From IMG/VR virus record IMGVR_UViG_3300029303_000014: 41,768 nt of DNA; one strand, given 5' to 3'. Under the pieces are notes generated by a model. That model saw only the letters and a program-made list of their open reading frames with translations, had not been told where the DNA came from and ran no database searches. Below, piece after piece: positions 1,415 to 40,792 of this stretch. The translations under genes were made by a program, and so were the position numbers. The stretch is from a virus. Each line of letters begins with the position of its first letter. Position 1 is the first letter of the stretch.

Positions 1415-1559
1415 AGCCAATATTCCCGCCGCCGATGCGCAGGGCATCAAGGAGCGCGTCGCCATGGACATCGAGCGATACGGCGACTGTAAGGTCGTGA
1501 AGGTCGAGAGCGACCGGGGGCGGGAAGAACAACTGCGAATGAAAGGAGACAAGTTATGA
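1395..1559 (+). CDS. Hypothetical small protein (54 aa)
   Basis: Internal ATG of track ORF 1212..1559, positioned just before the stop of the previous gene. Plausible composition. Confidence 0.5.
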   Translation: MLTITIKANIPAADAQGIKERVAMDIERYGDCKVVKVESDRGREEQLRMKGDKL

Positions 1560-1660
1560 GCATGGATGGAATTTGCGTTAACGATGATTGCCCGTTGTGT
1601 GCCGACTATTGCCCAGTTCCGGACACCGAAGGCGTGTGCCGTCACGAAGACAGGAGATAA
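1556..1660 (+). CDS. Cys-rich micro-ORF (34 aa, below the track cutoff)
   Basis: AAAGGAG lies 8 nt upstream. ATGA overlap with the upstream stop. Translation MSMDGICVNDDCPLCADYCPVPDTEGVCRHEDRR. Confidence 0.45.
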   Translation: MSMDGICVNDDCPLCADYCPVPDTEGVCRHEDRR

Positions 1661-1663
1661 GGA

Positions 1664-1882
1664 ATGAGCACATTTCCTGACCGCCTGCGCAAATTACGGG
1701 AACGCCAGCAGCTAAAGCGCTGCGTGCTGTCCGAACTGTGCGGGCTGAATCGGAATACCATCAAGCGGTATGAGATGGGGACGCAGAAACCGTCAATGGA
1801 CGCACTAATAAGCATCGCTGATTATTTCAGCGTGTCTATTGATTATCTGCTCGGTCGATCGGACTACCCAAAAATTTTATAA
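1664..1882 (+). CDS. XRE-family HTH transcriptional regulator (72 aa)
   Basis: HTH_3-type pattern LRKLRE..LKRCVLSELCGLNRNTIKRYEMG...SIDYLLG. Confidence 0.8.
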   Translation: MSTFPDRLRKLRERQQLKRCVLSELCGLNRNTIKRYEMGTQKPSMDALISIADYFSVSIDYLLGRSDYPKIL

Positions 1883-2638
1883 AATTTTTTTACAAAACTC
1901 ACTTATAAGTGAGTCAGGGCGTTGCAATAATGAGAAAATCGAACCGCAGAGGTGTAAAAGCCTTTGCGGTTCTCTCATTTATGGCGTTTAACCTCCTGCG
2001 CCATAGCGGGGCGCGGTGTTTTTCATCTTTTCACACCGCCCCCGCGATATGCCGAACGCACGATGCAGCCCACGATCAGGGCCGAGAGGTCGCACCTCTC
2101 ATGCGGCACAGGACTCCCCGCACCTCTCAACGATGTGGCCCAGGGGAGACATACGCAGACGTAGCTCAATCGGTAGAGCACCGCGCCAGGAGGTAGATGC
2201 AGGTTCAAACCCTGCCGTCTGCACCAGATGTATGCTACCGCATTGCGGCACGAAAGGGTAAGACCGCTACAAGGGGCTTGCCTGTGCGCTGTATGAAAGC
2301 GGCAGGCCGAAGAATATTTATTTAGCTGGCTCCGGCCTATAAATGAAAAAACGGATGCGACCGACATACCGGCGCAGGGCTGAAAAGTTCCGTGGTTATC
2401 CGGCGCTGCTGTCTTTGCGAGGAGGCTGAGGCGGTAAATGGATGTGGCGTGGTGACGGCAATCGAGAGATTAGGCCGTTGTGTAGGCCATGCCGAACAGA
2501 GCGCAGCGCCGGAGACTGTGTAAGTATCAAGCCCCTTAGCGGGCATAGAGTAGCCCTTCGGGGCGGGTAAAGTTTGCTATGTAAGGCCAAGGGGTGGGGG
2601 CTGGTAGCAAAAAAATGCGACAAGAGAGGTGGTGACGA
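1883..2638 (+). ncRNA. Candidate large structured non-coding RNA or leader (756 nt) upstream of terS
   Basis: No credible ORF on either strand. Many hand-paired helices: 1929-1979, 2006-2045, 2084-2100, 2280-2307, 2400-2408/2504-2512 and 2531-2564 (with a UUCG tetraloop). Contains an embedded tRNA-like element. Confidence 0.45.
2155..2226 (+). tRNA. tRNA-like element with a truncated anticodon arm (probably non-decoding or a pseudo-tRNA)
   Basis: Acceptor stem GCAGACG/CGTCTGC. D arm GCTC-AATCGGTA-GAGC. T arm GCAGG-TTCAAAC-CCTGC. Discriminator A plus encoded CCA. Only 18 nt lie where anticodon arm plus variable loop need about 21-22, and no 5-bp stem can form there. Confidence 0.5.
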
Positions 2639-3010
2639 GTGCCATTAACAGCAAAGCAAGAGAGATTTGTTCAAGAGTACCTTGTGGACTTAAATGCCAC
2701 TCAGGCCGCCGCGAGAGCCGGTTACAAGAATGCTGAAAAGGGTAGGCAGTTAGTTACGAATAGTAACGTTTCGGCTGCTATCCAGAAGGCAAAGGCAGAA
2801 AGACAGAAACGAACGGAAGTAACGCAGGACTATGTTATAGAAAAACTCAAAGAAATCGCAGACAAGCCTGCGTCTGATTGCACGGAAAGCGATTTGAAAT
2901 ATGCGAATAAGCTAAAAGCGCTTGAAATGCTGGCGAAGCATACGGGTGTGTTCGATAAGCAAGACAACACAAGCGCCGATTCCGTTGTCAAGGTGATTAT
3001 TGATGTCTGA
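2639..3010 (+). CDS. terS: Terminase small subunit
   Basis: Terminase_2-type N-terminus LTAKQERFVQEYLVDLNATQAAARAGY. GTG start after GAGAGGTGGTGA. Confidence 0.85.
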   Translation: MPLTAKQERFVQEYLVDLNATQAAARAGYKNAEKGRQLVTNSNVSAAIQKAKAERQKRTEVTQDYVIEKLKEIADKPASDCTESDLKYANKLKALEMLAKHTGVFDKQDNTSADSVVKVIIDV

Positions 3011-4241
3011 CATTCGTTTGTCAGAAAAGATCGGGCCTGCGTTTTATGACATTGCACATGACATTTTCCGGCATGGTCACACGCATTACGATTTTAGCGG
3101 TGGACGCGGTTCGTTGAAATCGTCCACGGTATCAATTATCGTCCCGCTTTTACTGGTTGCCAATCCGGGCACGCACGCGCTTGTGCTGCGCAAGGTGGCA
3201 AACACCATCCGCGATAGCGTCTATGCCCAGTATATTTGGGCAATCGGTGAGTTGGGCATGGCGGCGTATTGGGAAGCCAAGGTTTCTCCGATGGAGCTGA
3301 TCTATAAGCCGACAGGACAGAAGATCATGTTCCGTGGTGCCGATGACCCCATGAAGATCAAGTCTATCAAGGTTCCGTTCGGCTATATCGCCGTGACGCA
3401 CTTTGAAGAGAAAGACCAGTTTGCTGGACGCGCGGAAATCCGAAACATTTTGCAGTCCACCATGCGCGGCGGCTCGGTTTTCTGGAATTTTGAAAGCTAT
3501 AACCCGCCGATCTCGCGCGACAACTGGGCGAACAAGGACAGCTTAGAAGAACGCGCTGACCGGCTGTGCCACAAGTCAACATATCTGCAAGCCCCACCTG
3601 AGTGGTTGGGCGAGCAGTTTCTTGCAGAAGCGGAACACTTGAAAGAAACGGACGAGCGCGCATATCAGCATGAGTATCTCGGTATTCCGGTAGGAACTGG
3701 CGGCAATGTGTTCGATAAGCTGGAATTGAGGGAGATCACCGACAAAGAAATCGAAAGCTTCGACCGCATCTATCAGGGCGTTGACTTCGGATGGTTCCCG
3801 GATCCGTTCGCGTTTATCCGCCTGCATTATGATCGGGCAAGAGAGACGATATATCTGTTAGACGAGATTTATCAAAATAAACTATCCAACGAGCAAAGTG
3901 CGACCATGATAAAGCAGCGCAGATATAACAACGTTAGAACAATCTGTGACAGCGCGGAGCCAAAGAGCGTGGCTGACCTACGGGCAATGGGATTGCCGGC
4001 GTATGAGGCGGTCAAGGGACCCGGCTCGGTCGAATACGGCATGAAGTTCTTGCAGCGGAGAACAATTGTCATTGACAGGCGGCGCACACCGCGCGCTTAC
4101 AATGAGTTCGTGGGATACGAATACGAAAGAAACAAAGACGGCGACATTATCAGCGGATACCCAGACGCGAACAACCACTTGATTGACGCGACGAGGTATG
4201 CGTTAGAGCCTGTCAGCCGCAGAATGGGAGTTATTGCATGA
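3003..4241 (+). CDS. terL: Terminase large subunit (PBSX/Terminase_3-like)
   Basis: 412 aa. Walker-A-like GGRGSLKS, nuclease-half motifs, and position after terS. ATG 3003 (TTG 3000 is also possible). Confidence 0.93.
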   Translation: MSDIRLSEKIGPAFYDIAHDIFRHGHTHYDFSGGRGSLKSSTVSIIVPLLLVANPGTHALVLRKVANTIRDSVYAQYIWAIGELGMAAYWEAKVSPMELIYKPTGQKIMFRGADDPMKIKSIKVPFGYIAVTHFEEKDQFAGRAEIRNILQSTMRGGSVFWNFESYNPPISRDNWANKDSLEERADRLCHKSTYLQAPPEWLGEQFLAEAEHLKETDERAYQHEYLGIPVGTGGNVFDKLELREITDKEIESFDRIYQGVDFGWFPDPFAFIRLHYDRARETIYLLDEIYQNKLSNEQSATMIKQRRYNNVRTICDSAEPKSVADLRAMGLPAYEAVKGPGSVEYGMKFLQRRTIVIDRRRTPRAYNEFVGYEYERNKDGDIISGYPDANNHLIDATRYALEPVSRRMGVIA

Positions 4242-5671
4242 GCAATGCAGTTATCCAAAAGTTAAAAGAACTTGGCTATACGACGATCCCGGAAGAGTTT
4301 TACAGCCAAGTTGACCTCTGGAAGTCTTGGTATCAAGGAAACGTCAAAAACTTCCATAGATACCGCAAGTATAACGGGCATGAATGGGTTAATTGTGAGA
4401 GAGAAACACTTGGCATGGCAAAGAAAGTTTGCGAAGACTGGGCCAATTTGCTTCTGAATGAAAAAATCCAAATCACAGTTGATGGAAAAGCCGAACAGGA
4501 TTTCATTAACCGAATTTTGAAAGAAAACAACTTTTCGGTTAAGGCGAATGAAATGCAGGAGTTAAAAGCTGCACTTGGAACAGTGGCATATATCCCAAGA
4601 GTTGTTGGGCAGCGTGTTAATGATTACGGGGCGTTAATGGCTGGAACCGCAGACGATATTTTCATCGATTATGTCACAATGGAACACATTTACCCGATTT
4701 CATGGCAAAACGGAGTAATTACGGAGTGTGCATTCGATAATATCGTAAACCGAGGCGGGAAACGATATTTATTCTTACAAATTTTTAGGAAAGCAAAAAC
4801 AGGGAATTACATTATCGAAAACAGCATTTACGGGTATGAAAACGAAGTATTGACACCAGCAAACTTATCCGATGTATCAGGGTTTGAACGCATTCCGGAT
4901 TATGTAGATACTGGAAGCAGTGAGAGACAATTTGTTATTGACCGACTTGCGATTGCAAACAATGTCGATTATTTGCTTCCTACGGGGATCCCGGTATTTG
5001 CAAATTCAATAAGCGTGTTGCGCGTCATTGATAAAGCGTATGATTGCTACGCAAATGAATTTGATAATGGTGCGTTGCTTTTAGCCGTGAAAATGCCCGC
5101 CACAAGATACGAGGACGGCAGGCCCACATTTGATAAGCATGACAATCGCATTTATCTGCTTCCGGAAGATACGCAGCAAGGGAATGTTGTAGATGCGATT
5201 TCCCCGCAGTTGCGAACCTCGGAACTTAATATCGGGTTGCAAGATCAGCTAAACGTTTTGTCAAGTAAGTGCGGATTTGGAACGAATTTTTACCAATTCA
5301 ATCAGGGCGCAGTTATGGCAACGGCGACACAAGTTATTAGTACAAACTCAAAACTTGCGGAATCAAGAGGGAAACACCAACTTATTTTGCGTGATGCACT
5401 TACCGAACTATGCCGCATTCTTTTAAGACTTGGCAATAAAGCTATCGATGTAAACCTTAATGAAAATGCAGAAATCTCAATTGCGTTTGATGACTCCATT
5501 TTTATTGATACTGAATCTGAACGTGCACAGGACAGACTTGACGAAAACATGGGAGCAATGAGCCTTTTAGAATACCGTATGAAATGGTATGGAGAGGATG
5601 AAACGACTGCAAAAGCTGCGTTGGAAAAGGTGCATGAGATGGTCACAGAACCTCAAAATGAGGTCGAATAA
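4238..5671 (+). CDS. Portal protein (SPP1 gp6-like)
   Basis: 477 aa, ATGA overlap with terL, canonical position and length. Confidence 0.88.
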   Translation: MSNAVIQKLKELGYTTIPEEFYSQVDLWKSWYQGNVKNFHRYRKYNGHEWVNCERETLGMAKKVCEDWANLLLNEKIQITVDGKAEQDFINRILKENNFSVKANEMQELKAALGTVAYIPRVVGQRVNDYGALMAGTADDIFIDYVTMEHIYPISWQNGVITECAFDNIVNRGGKRYLFLQIFRKAKTGNYIIENSIYGYENEVLTPANLSDVSGFERIPDYVDTGSSERQFVIDRLAIANNVDYLLPTGIPVFANSISVLRVIDKAYDCYANEFDNGALLLAVKMPATRYEDGRPTFDKHDNRIYLLPEDTQQGNVVDAISPQLRTSELNIGLQDQLNVLSSKCGFGTNFYQFNQGAVMATATQVISTNSKLAESRGKHQLILRDALTELCRILLRLGNKAIDVNLNENAEISIAFDDSIFIDTESERAQDRLDENMGAMSLLEYRMKWYGEDETTAKAALEKVHEMVTEPQNEVE

Positions 5672-5674
5672 AGT

Positions 5675-6844
5675 ATGGCGAAATATCCGTTTACGCCGGA
5701 AATCCTCGATGCTCTCCCAGAAGAATTAGCAAAAATCTATCGCGCTCTCGAAAACACGCTGCTTGATGAGATTTGCAGCCGATTGGCCTTCGCAGATCAG
5801 CTCAATGAAGTTACGGTGCAGGATATTCGAGCGCTGAGATCGCACGGCATTGACCTTAGAAGCATCGAAGAAGCTATTAGCAAAACAGCAGGGATTAGCA
5901 AACAAAAGCTAAATAGTTTGCTTAATGACGTTGTAGAGCGCAACCAGAAGTATTACACCGAAGTCATCGACCTTGCGCATGTAACGCAGCCAGAAACGCT
6001 TGTAGACGCGGCTACAGTGGATGCAATTAAGCGGCAGACCCATGATACATTCCGCAATTTAACGGCTTCTATGGGTTTCCTCGTGGGTAACACGATGTTA
6101 AAGCCCGCGCGCGCTTATCAGTGGGCTTTGGATAACGCAGAAATGCAGATCCAGAGCAGCGCGATCAGCTACAATCAGGCTATTGCAAACGTTGTAAGGC
6201 AGCTCGCAGATAGTGGCATTAAAGTTGTAGACTACGAAAGCGGGCATCGTGATTTCATTGATGTAGCGGCGCGTCGCGCTGTGATGACCGGCGTAAATCA
6301 GATTTGCGCCAAGTACACCGAGAAATCGGCGGAGTATTTAGATACCCCGTATTTTGAGGTTTCTGCCCATGCGGGCGCACGCGATATTCCGGGCAAATCA
6401 CCGTGGTCATCTCACAAAGCATGGCAAGGCCTCGTATATTCCACTCGTAGCAATGACATTTACCCCAGCATTTACGATGTGTGCGGTCTTGGGGCCGTTG
6501 ATGGGCTTGAGGGGGCTAACTGCCGACACAGGCGGAATGTTTGGGTTGAGGGCGTAAGCGAACGCACATACACTGATGAGCAACTTGCCCATATTGATGA
6601 TGATCTTGGCTGCACGTTTGACGGAAAGAAATACACTGCATACGATGCGACGCAGATGCAACGGCGCGTTGAGCGACAGATTATCAAGCAGAAAAAGCTT
6701 GTAACAGCATATAAGGCGAGTGAGCAAAAGGACGAATATTATGCCGCAAAAGCAAAACTGGCAAGACTGAACGCCAAATATAAGGCTTTTAGTAAAGCGG
6801 CGGGGTTGCCGCTGCAATGGGAAAGGACAAAGGTGCTGTATTGA
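5675..6844 (+). CDS. Minor head protein, MuF / SPP1 gp7 family
   Basis: 389 aa following the portal. Central region is Phage_Mu_F-like. Confidence 0.8.
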   Translation: MAKYPFTPEILDALPEELAKIYRALENTLLDEICSRLAFADQLNEVTVQDIRALRSHGIDLRSIEEAISKTAGISKQKLNSLLNDVVERNQKYYTEVIDLAHVTQPETLVDAATVDAIKRQTHDTFRNLTASMGFLVGNTMLKPARAYQWALDNAEMQIQSSAISYNQAIANVVRQLADSGIKVVDYESGHRDFIDVAARRAVMTGVNQICAKYTEKSAEYLDTPYFEVSAHAGARDIPGKSPWSSHKAWQGLVYSTRSNDIYPSIYDVCGLGAVDGLEGANCRHRRNVWVEGVSERTYTDEQLAHIDDDLGCTFDGKKYTAYDATQMQRRVERQIIKQKKLVTAYKASEQKDEYYAAKAKLARLNAKYKAFSKAAGLPLQWERTKVLY

Positions 6845-38808: not shown

Positions 38809-39059
38809 GCAAGGTCATGAGACCGAAAACGCCGTTTGAGTTCTGCGTTTATCCAGTGCTCAAGGAAGCGCTGGAAAAGACGAACTATAACCAGACAGAA
38901 CTGGCGCAATCCCTCGGAATGTCGCAGTTTACGGTGTCGGCGTGGGCACGCGGCGACCGCGATACAACGGTGAGGCTGCTGCTGGCGCTGAAAGACCTGA
39001 CGGGGATGACGTTCCGCGAGCTGTTCGGGGAATGCGAGGGACGTCATGGAAGGGTATAG
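38805..39059 (+). CDS. HTH-like small protein (84 aa), paralogue of the previous gene
   Basis: ATGA overlap with the upstream gene. Shares the pattern described for 38572..38808. Confidence 0.62.
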   Translation: MSKVMRPKTPFEFCVYPVLKEALEKTNYNQTELAQSLGMSQFTVSAWARGDRDTTVRLLLALKDLTGMTFRELFGECEGRHGRV

Positions 39060-40125
39060 CAATCAGCCAATTCCGAAAGAAGCGGCGAAACAGCTTTTAG
39101 CCCTCGACTTGGAAGACAAAGAAATTTTAACCTACGAAAAGCTCGACCAGTGGTACACCGCGTGGAACGGGAAGTGCTATGTGTCATTCTCCGGCGGCAA
39201 GGATAGCACGGTGCTGGCATACTTGGCGGCGCGTTACCTGTCGAGCTTCAGGGCACCGCCGTGGGAGCTGAATCTGGTGTTTGTGAACACGGGGCTGGAA
39301 TATCCGGAGATTCAGCGGTTCGTGAACGAATATACGGACTGGCTGCGGAGGGAGTTTCCCCGCGTGACCGTCAAACTACACCGTCTGCGTCCGAAGATGA
39401 ACATTCGGCAGGTGGTAGCAAAGTACGGGTACAGCATCGTGAGCAAAGAGGTTGCGGAATATGTCAGAGATGCCCGCAGGAACCCAAGCTGCTTGAGAAT
39501 GAAGCGGTTGCGGGGGGAAGCCGTGCGAAAAAACGGTCAGCCGTCTGCCTACAACTGCGAGAAATGGGAATATCTGTTGTACGCACCGTTTGTAATCTCC
39601 TCGACGTGCTGCGCCATTATGAAAAAGTCACCGCTGAAAACCTACGAACACAAAACCGGGCAGCAGGCTACAACAGCGACGATGGCGGAGGAAAGCAGAT
39701 TACGCATGACGAATTGGCTGAATACTGGGTGCAACGCCTTTGATGGCAAGCGCCCGATGGGAAAGCCCATGAGTTTCTGGACGGAGCAGGACGTGTTGCG
39801 ATTCATCGTAGACCGAGAGCTACCTATCGCCAGCGTATACGGCGACATCGTGGCGAGCGACGGCGAGAACGACTATGCGGAAACGCTGATCGACTGCAAG
39901 CTGCACTGCACGGGGTGCCGGCGCACGGGGTGCATGTTCTGCGCATTTGGCGCGCACCTCGAAAAGGGAGAAAACCGGTTTGAGCGCATGAAGCACACGC
40001 ATCCGAAGCACTATGCCTTTTGCATCGGTGGTGGGGCTTACGATCCCGCTGACGGGATGTGGAAGCCAAACGAAAAGGGGCTGGGCTATGGGCGAGTGCT
40101 GGATTACATTGGAGTGAGGTATTGA
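39046..40125 (+). CDS. PAPS-reductase-family PP-loop protein with a C-terminal Cys cluster
   Basis: PP-loop is SFSGGKDSTVLAYL. C-terminal CTGCRRTGCMFCAFG. Confidence 0.82.
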   Translation: MEGYSNQPIPKEAAKQLLALDLEDKEILTYEKLDQWYTAWNGKCYVSFSGGKDSTVLAYLAARYLSSFRAPPWELNLVFVNTGLEYPEIQRFVNEYTDWLRREFPRVTVKLHRLRPKMNIRQVVAKYGYSIVSKEVAEYVRDARRNPSCLRMKRLRGEAVRKNGQPSAYNCEKWEYLLYAPFVISSTCCAIMKKSPLKTYEHKTGQQATTATMAEESRLRMTNWLNTGCNAFDGKRPMGKPMSFWTEQDVLRFIVDRELPIASVYGDIVASDGENDYAETLIDCKLHCTGCRRTGCMFCAFGAHLEKGENRFERMKHTHPKHYAFCIGGGAYDPADGMWKPNEKGLGYGRVLDYIGVRY

Positions 40126-40126
40126 G

Positions 40127-40792
40127 ATGAAGATTTTAGAGCTTTTTGCGGGGACGCGAAGCATCGGCAAGGCGTTCGAGCGGCGCGGACACGAGGTGTA
40201 TTCCATCGAGTGGGATAAGGACTTTGACCATATCGATTGGTACGCGGATATCATGACCGTCACAGCGCAGGATATCTTGGAACGTTTTGGGCGTCCGGAC
40301 GTTATCTGGGCAAGCCCAGATTGCGCGACCTTTAGCATTGCCGGAATTTCACACCACAGGCGGAGAAATCCCGAGACCGGAGCTCTGGACCCAATCAGCG
40401 AGTATGCCCGTTTCTGTGACGAGGTCGACCAGCATGTGCTCGACCTTATCCACGAGCTGCGCCCGCGCTATTGGTTTATAGAGAACCCGCGCGGCGGGAT
40501 GCGTAAGATGCCGTGGATGCGGAGCCTCCCGCGCTACACCGTTACTTATTGCCAATACGAGACGGACAAGCCCGTTGAGCAGCGCCGGATGAAGCCCACC
40601 GATATCTGGACAAATCACCCAGCCCCAAAGTTCAGGCCCATGTGCCACAACGGGTCTCCCTGCCATGCGGCAGCCCCGCGCGGGTCGCGCAGCGGAACAC
40701 AGGGACTAAAGAACAGCAGGGATAGAAGCGTTATTCCCCCACTACTGTGCGAGCACATTGTAGATATTTGCGAGGAGGGCAGTGAAGGATGA
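40127..40792 (+). CDS. Short DNA (cytosine-5)-methyltransferase
   Basis: Motif I is LELFAGTRS, the PC motif is ASPDCATFS, and the ENV-like motif is FIENPRG. Confidence 0.75.
   Translation: MKILELFAGTRSIGKAFERRGHEVYSIEWDKDFDHIDWYADIMTVTAQDILERFGRPDVIWASPDCATFSIAGISHHRRRNPETGALDPISEYARFCDEVDQHVLDLIHELRPRYWFIENPRGGMRKMPWMRSLPRYTVTYCQYETDKPVEQRRMKPTDIWTNHPAPKFRPMCHNGSPCHAAAPRGSRSGTQGLKNSRDRSVIPPLLCEHIVDICEEGSEG

Follow-up and report, generated by a model that had tools for sequence, protein, structure and literature searches.

The window analyzed here, a 41,768-nucleotide (nt) stretch of viral DNA (IMG/VR record IMGVR_UViG_3300029303_000014), derives from a temperate siphovirus-type phage or a circularly permuted prophage, and includes a 756-nt segment (positions 1883-2638) located between a gene for an XRE-type helix-turn-helix protein and the small terminase gene terS. 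The XRE-type gene (1664-1882, + strand; 72 amino acids (aa); Pfam HTH_3, E=1.3e-10) closes a run of small genes and is the last gene before the segment. The packaging/late module opens after it with terS (2639-3010, + strand; Pfam Terminase_2, 2.3e-23), followed by terL (3000-4241, + strand; Pfam Terminase_3, 4.4e-35) and an SPP1-type portal gene (4238-5671, + strand; Pfam SPP1_portal, 1.1e-15), and this arrangement identifies the segment as the junction between early and late genes. Read along the + strand, the segment comprises a putative control cassette, a leader with two hairpins, a transfer RNA (tRNA)-like element, a structured RNA of ~300 nt with no match in Rfam, and a 5' untranslated region (UTR) module.

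No credible gene was identified within the segment, in agreement with a preliminary description of this DNA made from the sequence alone. Mechanically called open reading frames (ORFs) of 81-114 aa are present on both strands, yet none of them matches a PHROG family, and the homologous region of phage MT835513, which is 82% identical, differs from the window by many frameshifting 1-nt insertions and deletions (indels). The helices that the preliminary description had paired by hand are all present on direct reading, including a CTCCCC/GGGGAG pair at 2114-2119/2143-2148, a hairpin at 2280-2307 and a C(UUCG)G hairpin at 2553-2564, and most of them recur in minimum-free-energy folds. Folding energy is far below that of shuffled sequences in 1883-2154 (z = -6.7) and at chance level in 2527-2638 (z = 0.06).

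The same description had regarded the whole segment as one RNA of 756 nt. Comparison with related loci (labelled L004, L025, L127 and so forth below) reveals several units instead, since homology to the window begins and ends at fixed points. Many loci align from 2223/2224, at the CCA of the tRNA-like element, and many end at 2521-2523; the stretch 1802-2055 moves together with the XRE-like gene, and 2108-2152 and 2550-2612 are each found on their own. The breakpoints at 2223/2224 and 2521-2523, together with flanking tRNAs, bound the RNA to approximately 2227-2523.

Structure and distribution of the ~300-nt RNA

The RNA (2227-~2523, + strand) begins immediately past the CCA of the tRNA-like element. 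Its 5' domain contains helices P2 (2277-2290/2298-2312), P3 (2325-2328/2333-2336) and P4 (2351-2355/2389-2393), the last with the two branches P4a (2356-2363/2370-2376) and P4b (2379-2381/2386-2388, with a GAAA loop); an additional helix, Pb (2245-2248/2264-2267), forms around the loop CACGAAAGGGUAAGA. The 3' domain is closed by the long-range helix P5 (2399-2409/2503-2513), which has a perfect core, CCGGCGCTG/CAGCGCCGG, at 2400-2408/2504-2512 and encloses P6 (2453-2459/2474-2480, including GACGGC/GCCGTT at 2454-2459/2474-2479) and P6a (2460-2463/2468-2471). Conserved single-stranded motifs are GAGGCG (2428-2433), GUGUAG (2480-2485) and the tail ACUGUGUAA (2515-2523). The three-way-junction core, ACGGAUGCGACC..GGCGCAGGGCUGAAAAGUUCCGU, spans ~45 nt and hardly varies in more than 240 copies, although their remaining helices differ freely from one another. 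The core hairpin GCU-GAAA-AGU was found in 235 of 243 copies with a search pattern that left six of its bases free, and length changes of +1 and -2 in the core loop preserve the pairing, changes that would break any reading frame.

Covariation among homologues, seen in P2, P3, P4a and P6, bears out the earlier proposal that a conserved structured non-coding RNA is present on the + strand. In a MAFFT alignment of 47 representatives, 94% of the 5'-domain cells are paired and 14 of the 33 pairs show changes on both sides, values that 0 of 500 shuffles reached. An alignment of 83 representatives, which was fitted to model R1 and hence leans towards it, gives 95% paired cells for 33 pairs, with 18 pairs (210 cells) changed on both sides; again these values were reached by 0 of 500 shuffles, and slid controls pair 37-52% of cells. 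RNAalifold detected compensatory changes in 15 of 36 pairs among 43 representatives, P6 included, with one P6 pair accumulating 18 double changes. P5 holds its position across more than 15 unrelated arm sequences (mean score 10.0, versus 6.8 in shuffles), encloses 91-109 nt in most members and is followed by the conserved tail YUGUGWA. The strand assignment follows from the large excess of G-U over A-C pairs (182 versus 21), and model R1 matches the window once, at 2256-2396, with 155.5 bits. No consistent pairing was evident by eye in the alignments for a helix closing the 5' end onto the tail, or for pseudoknots involving GAGGCG, GUGUAG or the P3 loop.

A search of the whole window against Rfam 15 yielded a single match, to tRNA at 2155-2223 (55 bits against a gathering score of 29). 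Membership of the GOLLD or ROOL families, as the preliminary description had suggested, or of HEARO, was not upheld: with relaxed filters and E<=10, positions 1600-2900 returned no GOLLD, ROOL, HEARO, RNase P, T-box or transfer-messenger RNA (tmRNA), a divergent family member (L127) matched no other family at E<=10 either, and 14 related island loci (141 kb) contained no GOLLD, ROOL or HEARO at the gathering score. With tRNA as the sole Rfam match, 6S and ribozyme families are likewise ruled out, and a HEARO/IscB omega RNA was rejected on the lack of a covariance-model match and on its neighbours here, an XRE-like gene and terS. A T-box was rejected because, besides the missing Rfam match, the base after GUGG changes with P6 (U-G to C-G) and does not track the upstream tRNA's discriminator. 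GUGGU does look like the T-box sequence, but UGGC is seen at loci whose tRNA-Gly ends in UCCA, which argues against binding of the CCA by GUGGU in T-box fashion. A pairing reminiscent of RNase P helix P4, CCGGCUU/AAAGUUCCG, was discarded because its CCGGCUU strand sits in the local hairpin P3, which has compensatory changes.

The RNA is a member of a widespread family found in phage and gut-metagenome contigs. A blastn search against GenBank phages returned just two matches, the uncultured faecal phages MT835513 and MT835520. An 18-base core motif was located in more than 120 IMG/VR contigs, and a looser 27-base pattern in more than 120 contigs from metagenomes; among the metagenome matches listed, several carry the title human gut metagenome and many are as long as a phage genome. 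The 27-base pattern occurs in 6 of 185,579 species genomes, five of which are metagenome-assembled genomes (MAGs) of Oscillospiraceae, Oscillibacter, Eubacteriales or Ructibacterium, the sixth being a MAG labelled Staphylococcaceae. The abundance of phage and metagenome contigs, set against so few species genomes, indicates that the element is phage-borne and no housekeeping RNA. Clustering of the 230 full-length copies leaves 83 groups at 97% identity and 26 at 90%. The core motifs were matched in none of the papers searched; large phage structured-RNA catalogues may nevertheless list the family as an unnamed candidate. The Eubacteriales MAG contig that harbors the divergent copy (L127) also encodes a hammerhead ribozyme of type II (5090-5158) and a RAGATH-5 RNA (6762-6813).

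tRNA-like elements and the layout of the islands

The tRNA-like element (2155-2226, + strand) possesses a 7-bp acceptor stem (GCAGACG/CGTCTGC), a discriminator A, an encoded CCA and normal D and T arms. The earlier observation that a tRNA-like element is attached to the structured RNA holds. The Rfam tRNA alignment spans the full length of the model, with 9 nt in the anticodon arm where 13 are expected. The acceptor stem, discriminator, CCA and D and T arms are those of canonical tRNA (RF00005) in the elongator tRNA-Met(CAU) lineage, and a relative with an identical acceptor stem (L112) is a normal tRNA-Met. Unlike a canonical tRNA, the window element has an anticodon arm reduced to a 13-nt stub, CCGCGCCAGGAGG, with no 7-nt loop, so that it cannot decode, and ARAGORN reports no tRNA in the window.

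Twenty distinct relatives share both the acceptor stem and the discriminator. Their T stems covary (GCAGG, GTTGG, GCTGG, GTGGG), and their anticodon regions comprise a genuine tRNA-Met(CAU), the 13-nt stub (in the window and eight other variants) and arbitrary inserts of up to ~30 nt; some relatives finish in CAA, not CCA. A shared acceptor stem and a covarying T stem combined with a free anticodon region suggest that selection kept the parts read by tRNA-processing enzymes, namely acceptor stem, T arm, D/T elbow and CCA, and dropped decoding, and the tRNA-like elements may thus function as processing handles. Two other interpretations of the element were rejected. An attP site with a tRNA fragment is at odds with the full cloverleaf and with the position of the tyrosine integrase gene, ~27 kb from the segment and on the opposite strand (29145-30170, - strand), and a permuted tmRNA is represented by a weak 13.5-bit match that covers merely the T arm and CCA. 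Other ARAGORN-negative tRNA-likes lie directly 5' of the RNA elsewhere, in a 95-nt type (L004, L006, L070, L056) and a 110-nt type (L008, L046, L055, L066). Of these ARAGORN-negative elements, one, with the sequence GCGGCAU..AUGCCGUACCA, is marked by a non-canonical T loop; in another, the variable arm is very long and the 'anticodon' loop measures 8 nt.

A tRNA or tRNA-like element nearly always precedes the RNA. All 286 tRNAs that ARAGORN detected up to 1.5 kb away share the strand of the RNA. A tRNA (Gly, Trp, Met, Ser, Thr, Cys or Phe) ends at the 5' boundary of the RNA in 73 of 196 loci, and one (Gly or Gln) starts a few bases past the tail in 48 of 196; at L029, the next tRNA begins 4 nt past UGUGAAACA. 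A perfect 7-bp acceptor stem with NC(C/A)A abuts the 5' boundary in 170 of 195 loci, compared with 13 of 195 in a control window.

The same tRNA islands contain a second non-coding element, also conserved and ~170 nt long, which is absent from the window and usually has a tRNA(-like) element on one side and, on the other, the tRNA-like located ahead of the main RNA (L070, L006, L098, L020, L113, L044, L069, L075, L016, L118, L023, L026, L109, L126). It follows the pattern GCCGGGUAGCNCCCGG..UGUGAGA..UCUCACA..GCUGAAAACUGCGC..GUGUGACAAUCUAAGCG, with compensatory changes in the first hairpins, a similar UGUGA tail at its end and no Rfam match, and it may be another new RNA class.

Control cassette, flanking modules and neighbouring genes

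The 5' third of the segment (1883-2050) has the layout of an operator/promoter/terminator cassette. A perfect 16-bp palindrome, CTCACTTATAAGTGAG (1898-1913), is a candidate operator that overlaps the -35 region of a putative late/island promoter with the extended -10 element TGCAATAAT (1923-1931, + strand; expected start ~1937-1939). The likely binder of this palindrome is the XRE-type protein, whose own gene ends just upstream. In 29 related loci, a protein of this XRE family is encoded just as far upstream of the RNA, and the equivalent palindrome in related loci differs with each XRE variant (TTCCCCTTTTAAGGGGAA, TTCCACTTAAAAGTGGAA, TTCCTCCATTTGGAGGAA). Each variant has its own 16-18 bp palindrome (window, L018, L025, L032, L039, L023), a pattern that looks like co-varying regulator and operator specificity. 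Most divergent versions have, at the equivalent place, TGN and a hexamer whose second base is A and whose sixth is T (TGCGACAAT, TGCAAAAAT, TGCGAGAAT, TGTCAGAAT, TTTTATCAT).

Two terminator-like sites follow on the + strand. The first, t1 (1929-1982), is a bulged hairpin with an inner stem of 12-13 bp (1941-1972) and the U-rich tail TCTCATTTAT; the second, t2 (1996-2026), combines a GC-rich 7-bp hairpin, CTGCGCC..GGCGCGG (1996-2016), with the U-tract TGTTTTTCAT. Both have the predicted layout of intrinsic terminators, a GC-rich hairpin followed by a U-tract, which corrects the earlier statement that no helix in the segment precedes such a tract. The U-tract of t1 is weaker than that of t2, and the t1 stem is partly decayed in MT835513, without compensatory changes. 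Terminator-like sites are enriched in the region, with six found in 1500-3000 where 1.8 are expected. The minimum-free-energy fold includes the bulged hairpin 1929-1979 and a hairpin at 2006-2045; the t2 hairpin excludes both the latter and a hairpin at 1980-2005, and vice versa. A terminator/antiterminator switch among 1980-2005, 1996-2016 and 2006-2045 was considered, but the order of transcription yields no working switch, and the homologues are very alike in sequence.

Several sequence-divergent versions of the cassette keep the same order of palindrome, TGN with a -10-like hexamer, hairpin, U-rich tract, GC-rich hairpin and first tRNA(-like) element. A hairpin with a U-tract stands right behind the -10 in all inspected versions, the first hairpin starting 0-9 nt past the hexamer, and the TTTTTCAT tract at t2 is common to the post-hairpin tract of other versions. 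A sigma-70 scan gives, in L025, a promoter whose end coincides with the start of a terminator-like stem and, in L032, a promoter with a terminator-like site close behind; in L059, a terminator-like site was reported at the equivalent place. These hairpins might insulate the late unit from early read-through. In relatives whose promoter abuts the 5' arm of the terminator, transcripts begun there could not form it, and lacking that arm they would pass where early read-through would be halted. In the window, the stem 1941-1972 and the site 1996-2016 are predicted to be still transcribed, so that some read-through or antitermination would be needed. Insulation and escape are read here from the layout of the cassette. 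The earlier suggestion that the segment is a leader ahead of the late operon therefore finds partial support, for its first third alone, and there as a control region outside the ornate RNA.

The leader proper (2046-2154, + strand) has hairpins at 2084-2100 and 2114-2148. The first is formed by GAGAGGT/ACCTCTC, and CGCACCTCTCA occurs again at 2119-2129. The motif CAGGACYCCCGCACCTCTCAACGATGTG (2108-2152) recurs adjoining tRNA-likes at other loci. As CAGGACUCCCCGCACCUCUCAACGAUGUGGCCCAGGGGAG, the 2108-2152 motif is elsewhere a separate unit; in L056 it lies 5' of a tRNA-like, and L037, L038 and L049 have it on the 3' side of the RNA. On the other side of the RNA, a 3' extension and 5'UTR module (2527-2612, + strand) carries a GCCC-UUCG-GGGC hairpin and a UGCUA..UAGCA stem. 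Its part 2550-2612 is reused ahead of different first late genes, with a ribosome-binding site after GGTAGCAAA and then various ORFs depending on the locus. This module of ~63 nt (GUAGCCCUUCGGGGCGGGUAAAGUYUGCUAUGUAAGGCCAAGGGGYGGGGGCUGGUAGCAAA) is also present where the 3' domain of the RNA differs (L059, L110) or is deleted (L020).

Beyond the genes that flank the segment, an ERF recombinase and a DnaC-like loader are encoded in the 34-37 kb region. Ahead of the XRE-like gene, small cysteine-rich ORFs occupy 467-1660. One of them (467-751) encodes a Lar-like restriction-alleviation protein, and another, of 71 aa (1199-1411), has a zinc-finger match below threshold. The early region at 39046-40792 encodes a PAPS-reductase-domain protein followed by a cytosine-C5 DNA methylase fragment. 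The listed start of terL is a TTG that gives an 11-nt overlap with the end of terS (3000-3010), and the true start may be a nearby downstream ATG (MMSD...); an exact-sequence look-up of the TTG-started product returned no record.

Interpretation and comparison with known systems

The reading that we prefer, with a probability of roughly 0.6, is that the RNA represents a new class of phage tRNA-island RNA, excised by tRNA-processing enzymes and acting in trans, and that the segment as a whole is the non-coding head of the phage late/packaging transcription unit, built of independent modules. The RNA would be a standard component of the tRNA islands that phages carry in Oscillospiraceae-like hosts, and would be transcribed together with the tRNAs and tRNA-likes there. 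In the window, the late unit would be controlled through the palindromic operator, which the adjacent XRE-type protein would bind across the -35 of the extended -10 promoter. The 5' end of the RNA would be freed through 3' maturation, by an endonuclease, of the upstream tRNA(-like) element, and its 3' side, in many relatives, where RNase P would cut at the next tRNA, and the released RNA would act in trans late in infection. A free, trans-acting RNA is favoured by the tRNA that often stands right after it, and by loci in which it comes after an integrase gene and a tRNA-Gly and before unrelated small genes.

Several observations weigh against this reading. The folding energy of 2227-2526 is modestly below that of shuffles (z = -1.9), and covariation is uninformative for P4, P4b and most of P4a, as these helices never vary, an invariance that the search patterns partly imposed. 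In Bacillus, elements that encode their CCA are poor RNase Z substrates, so that the enzyme that would free the 5' end of the RNA is not obvious. The strict two-hexamer scan did not report the window promoter at 1923-1931, and no gene for a partner protein recurs consistently near the RNA across loci. In the window the RNA has no tRNA after it, and no terminator intervenes between it and terS; it could here remain part of the late mRNA, as its leader. Promoter use, processing and the accumulation of a discrete RNA are steps that we infer from the arrangement of sequence elements, and the function of the RNA is not readable from its sequence.

Beyond this, we tentatively entertain the idea of a third, unnamed class of phage tRNA-island RNA, beside GOLLD and ROOL, in which the near-invariant core serves as an active site, or as the docking point of some host machine that is universally conserved. 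The RNA might then be a ribozyme or molecular decoy acting on tRNA-like ends, or a self-assembler as ROOL and GOLLD are, and docking partners of the core could be tRNA-processing enzymes, the ribosome or RNA polymerase.

Among the alternatives, the best placed, which we regard as unlikely, is that the RNA is a cis-acting leader of the late operon, working either through processive antitermination, as the put and EAR RNAs do, or by affecting the stability or translation of the terS message. The absence of a terminator ahead of terS applies to close relatives as well as to the window, both having the RNA directly upstream of that gene; in the 29 XRE-like loci the island that bears the RNA lies behind the promoter-terminator cassette, and 2550-2612 is a conserved 5'UTR. 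At many loci the RNA precedes packaging genes (terS variants, terL), among which is a ~355-aa protein that, by eye, may be ParB-methylase-like. A leader is, however, difficult to reconcile with the 48 of 196 loci in which a tRNA, not a gene, comes a few bases after the RNA, since RNase P would sever the RNA from the downstream sequence, or with the ~20-27 loci in which it follows an integrase and tRNA-Gly and is succeeded by unrelated small genes and no packaging genes. Moreover, the terminator-like hairpins of the window are upstream of the RNA, with none downstream, and the RNA cannot help polymerase past sites that precede it; nor is there similarity to any Rfam cis-regulatory family.

We consider it improbable that tRNA islands retain the RNA as a selfish or hitch-hiking module, of no use to the phage, because it furthers its own spread, for instance as a recombination hotspot with tRNA ends on either side, or that its core is a site acting at the DNA level, such as a pac site, an origin or a protein-binding site. 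The near-invariance of the core, the presence of the module in phages with several different terS and terL families and the breakpoints falling exactly at the tRNA 3' end and at the tail would all be expected of such an element, yet compensatory changes maintain at least five helices despite sequence drift and loop indels leave the pairing intact. The excess of G-U over A-C pairs fits selection on one RNA strand and not on duplex DNA, and the distance to terS is variable, where that of a pac site would be fixed. Still less probable is that the RNA belongs to GOLLD or ROOL as a truncated or strongly diverged member; this would account for the phage-borne setting in or beside tRNA islands and for the many helices, but not for the lack of a covariance-model match at E<=10 with relaxed filters (window, L127) or at the gathering score (14 loci), nor for a length below that of ROOL or many GOLLD. 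A hidden protein gene, possibly with a recoded stop and the tRNA-like as its suppressor tRNA, deserves practically no credence: the mechanical ORFs, and a short frame open through the core in many copies, have to be set against the missing PHROG match, the indels relative to MT835513, the +1 and -2 changes in core length and the lack of any 7-nt anticodon loop.

Few large, intricately folded bacterial or phage RNAs of unknown function are known, and the family adds one that, at ~300 nt and present in several human gut metagenomes, is a compact target for structure determination and for studies of its role in infection. The degenerate tRNAs ahead of the RNAs suggest a simple route of production, and the operator/promoter/terminator cassette offers a concrete model of late-gene control in uncultured Oscillospiraceae phages.

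The cassette invites comparison with lambda PR'-tR', a late promoter with a terminator at once behind it, and with the operators of small XRE/C-proteins. The likenesses would be a promoter upstream of late genes with an intrinsic terminator within tens of bases, and a palindrome for a small helix-turn-helix protein overlapping the promoter. Unlike lambda, no Q-like antiterminator was identified, and the -10 abutting the terminator 5' arm in several relatives suggests escape via the start position, not via antitermination. For the RNA itself, the T4 species 1 and 2 RNAs of the T4 tRNA cluster and the mammalian MALAT1/mascRNA are precedents in which a non-tRNA RNA shares its precursor with a tRNA or tRNA-like and has its ends set by tRNA-processing enzymes. 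The tRNA(-like) neighbour and the abutting downstream tRNA suggest a similar arrangement here. The T4 RNAs are smaller and unrelated, and the MALAT1 tRNA-like is 3' of its long RNA, whereas here the tRNA-like is 5'.

GOLLD and ROOL form RNA-only nanocages, neither is known to have a protein partner, and ROOL averages ~580 nt. Both have been described as phage or prophage RNAs, 'often near tRNA islands' and of unknown function, GOLLD sometimes containing internal tRNAs and many of its members exceeding 800 nt (PMC12286853). The RNA described here shares with them a tRNA before it, often a tRNA after it, the location of all of these on the same strand, and many covarying helices. It differs in giving no covariance-model match, in its length and in its own near-invariant core, and its genome matches are Oscillospiraceae-like Clostridia, save for the one Staphylococcaceae-labelled MAG, alongside several human gut records. 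The likeness in setting that the preliminary description had drawn accordingly stands as far as location beside tRNA islands is concerned, which other RNA classes share as well and which is not sufficient alone to define a GOLLD, and fails as to family. The same genomic habit in RNAs with unrelated folds suggests that phage tRNA islands are a general home of structured RNAs and not merely a store of spare tRNAs, and the unmatched ~170-nt element in the same islands points likewise.

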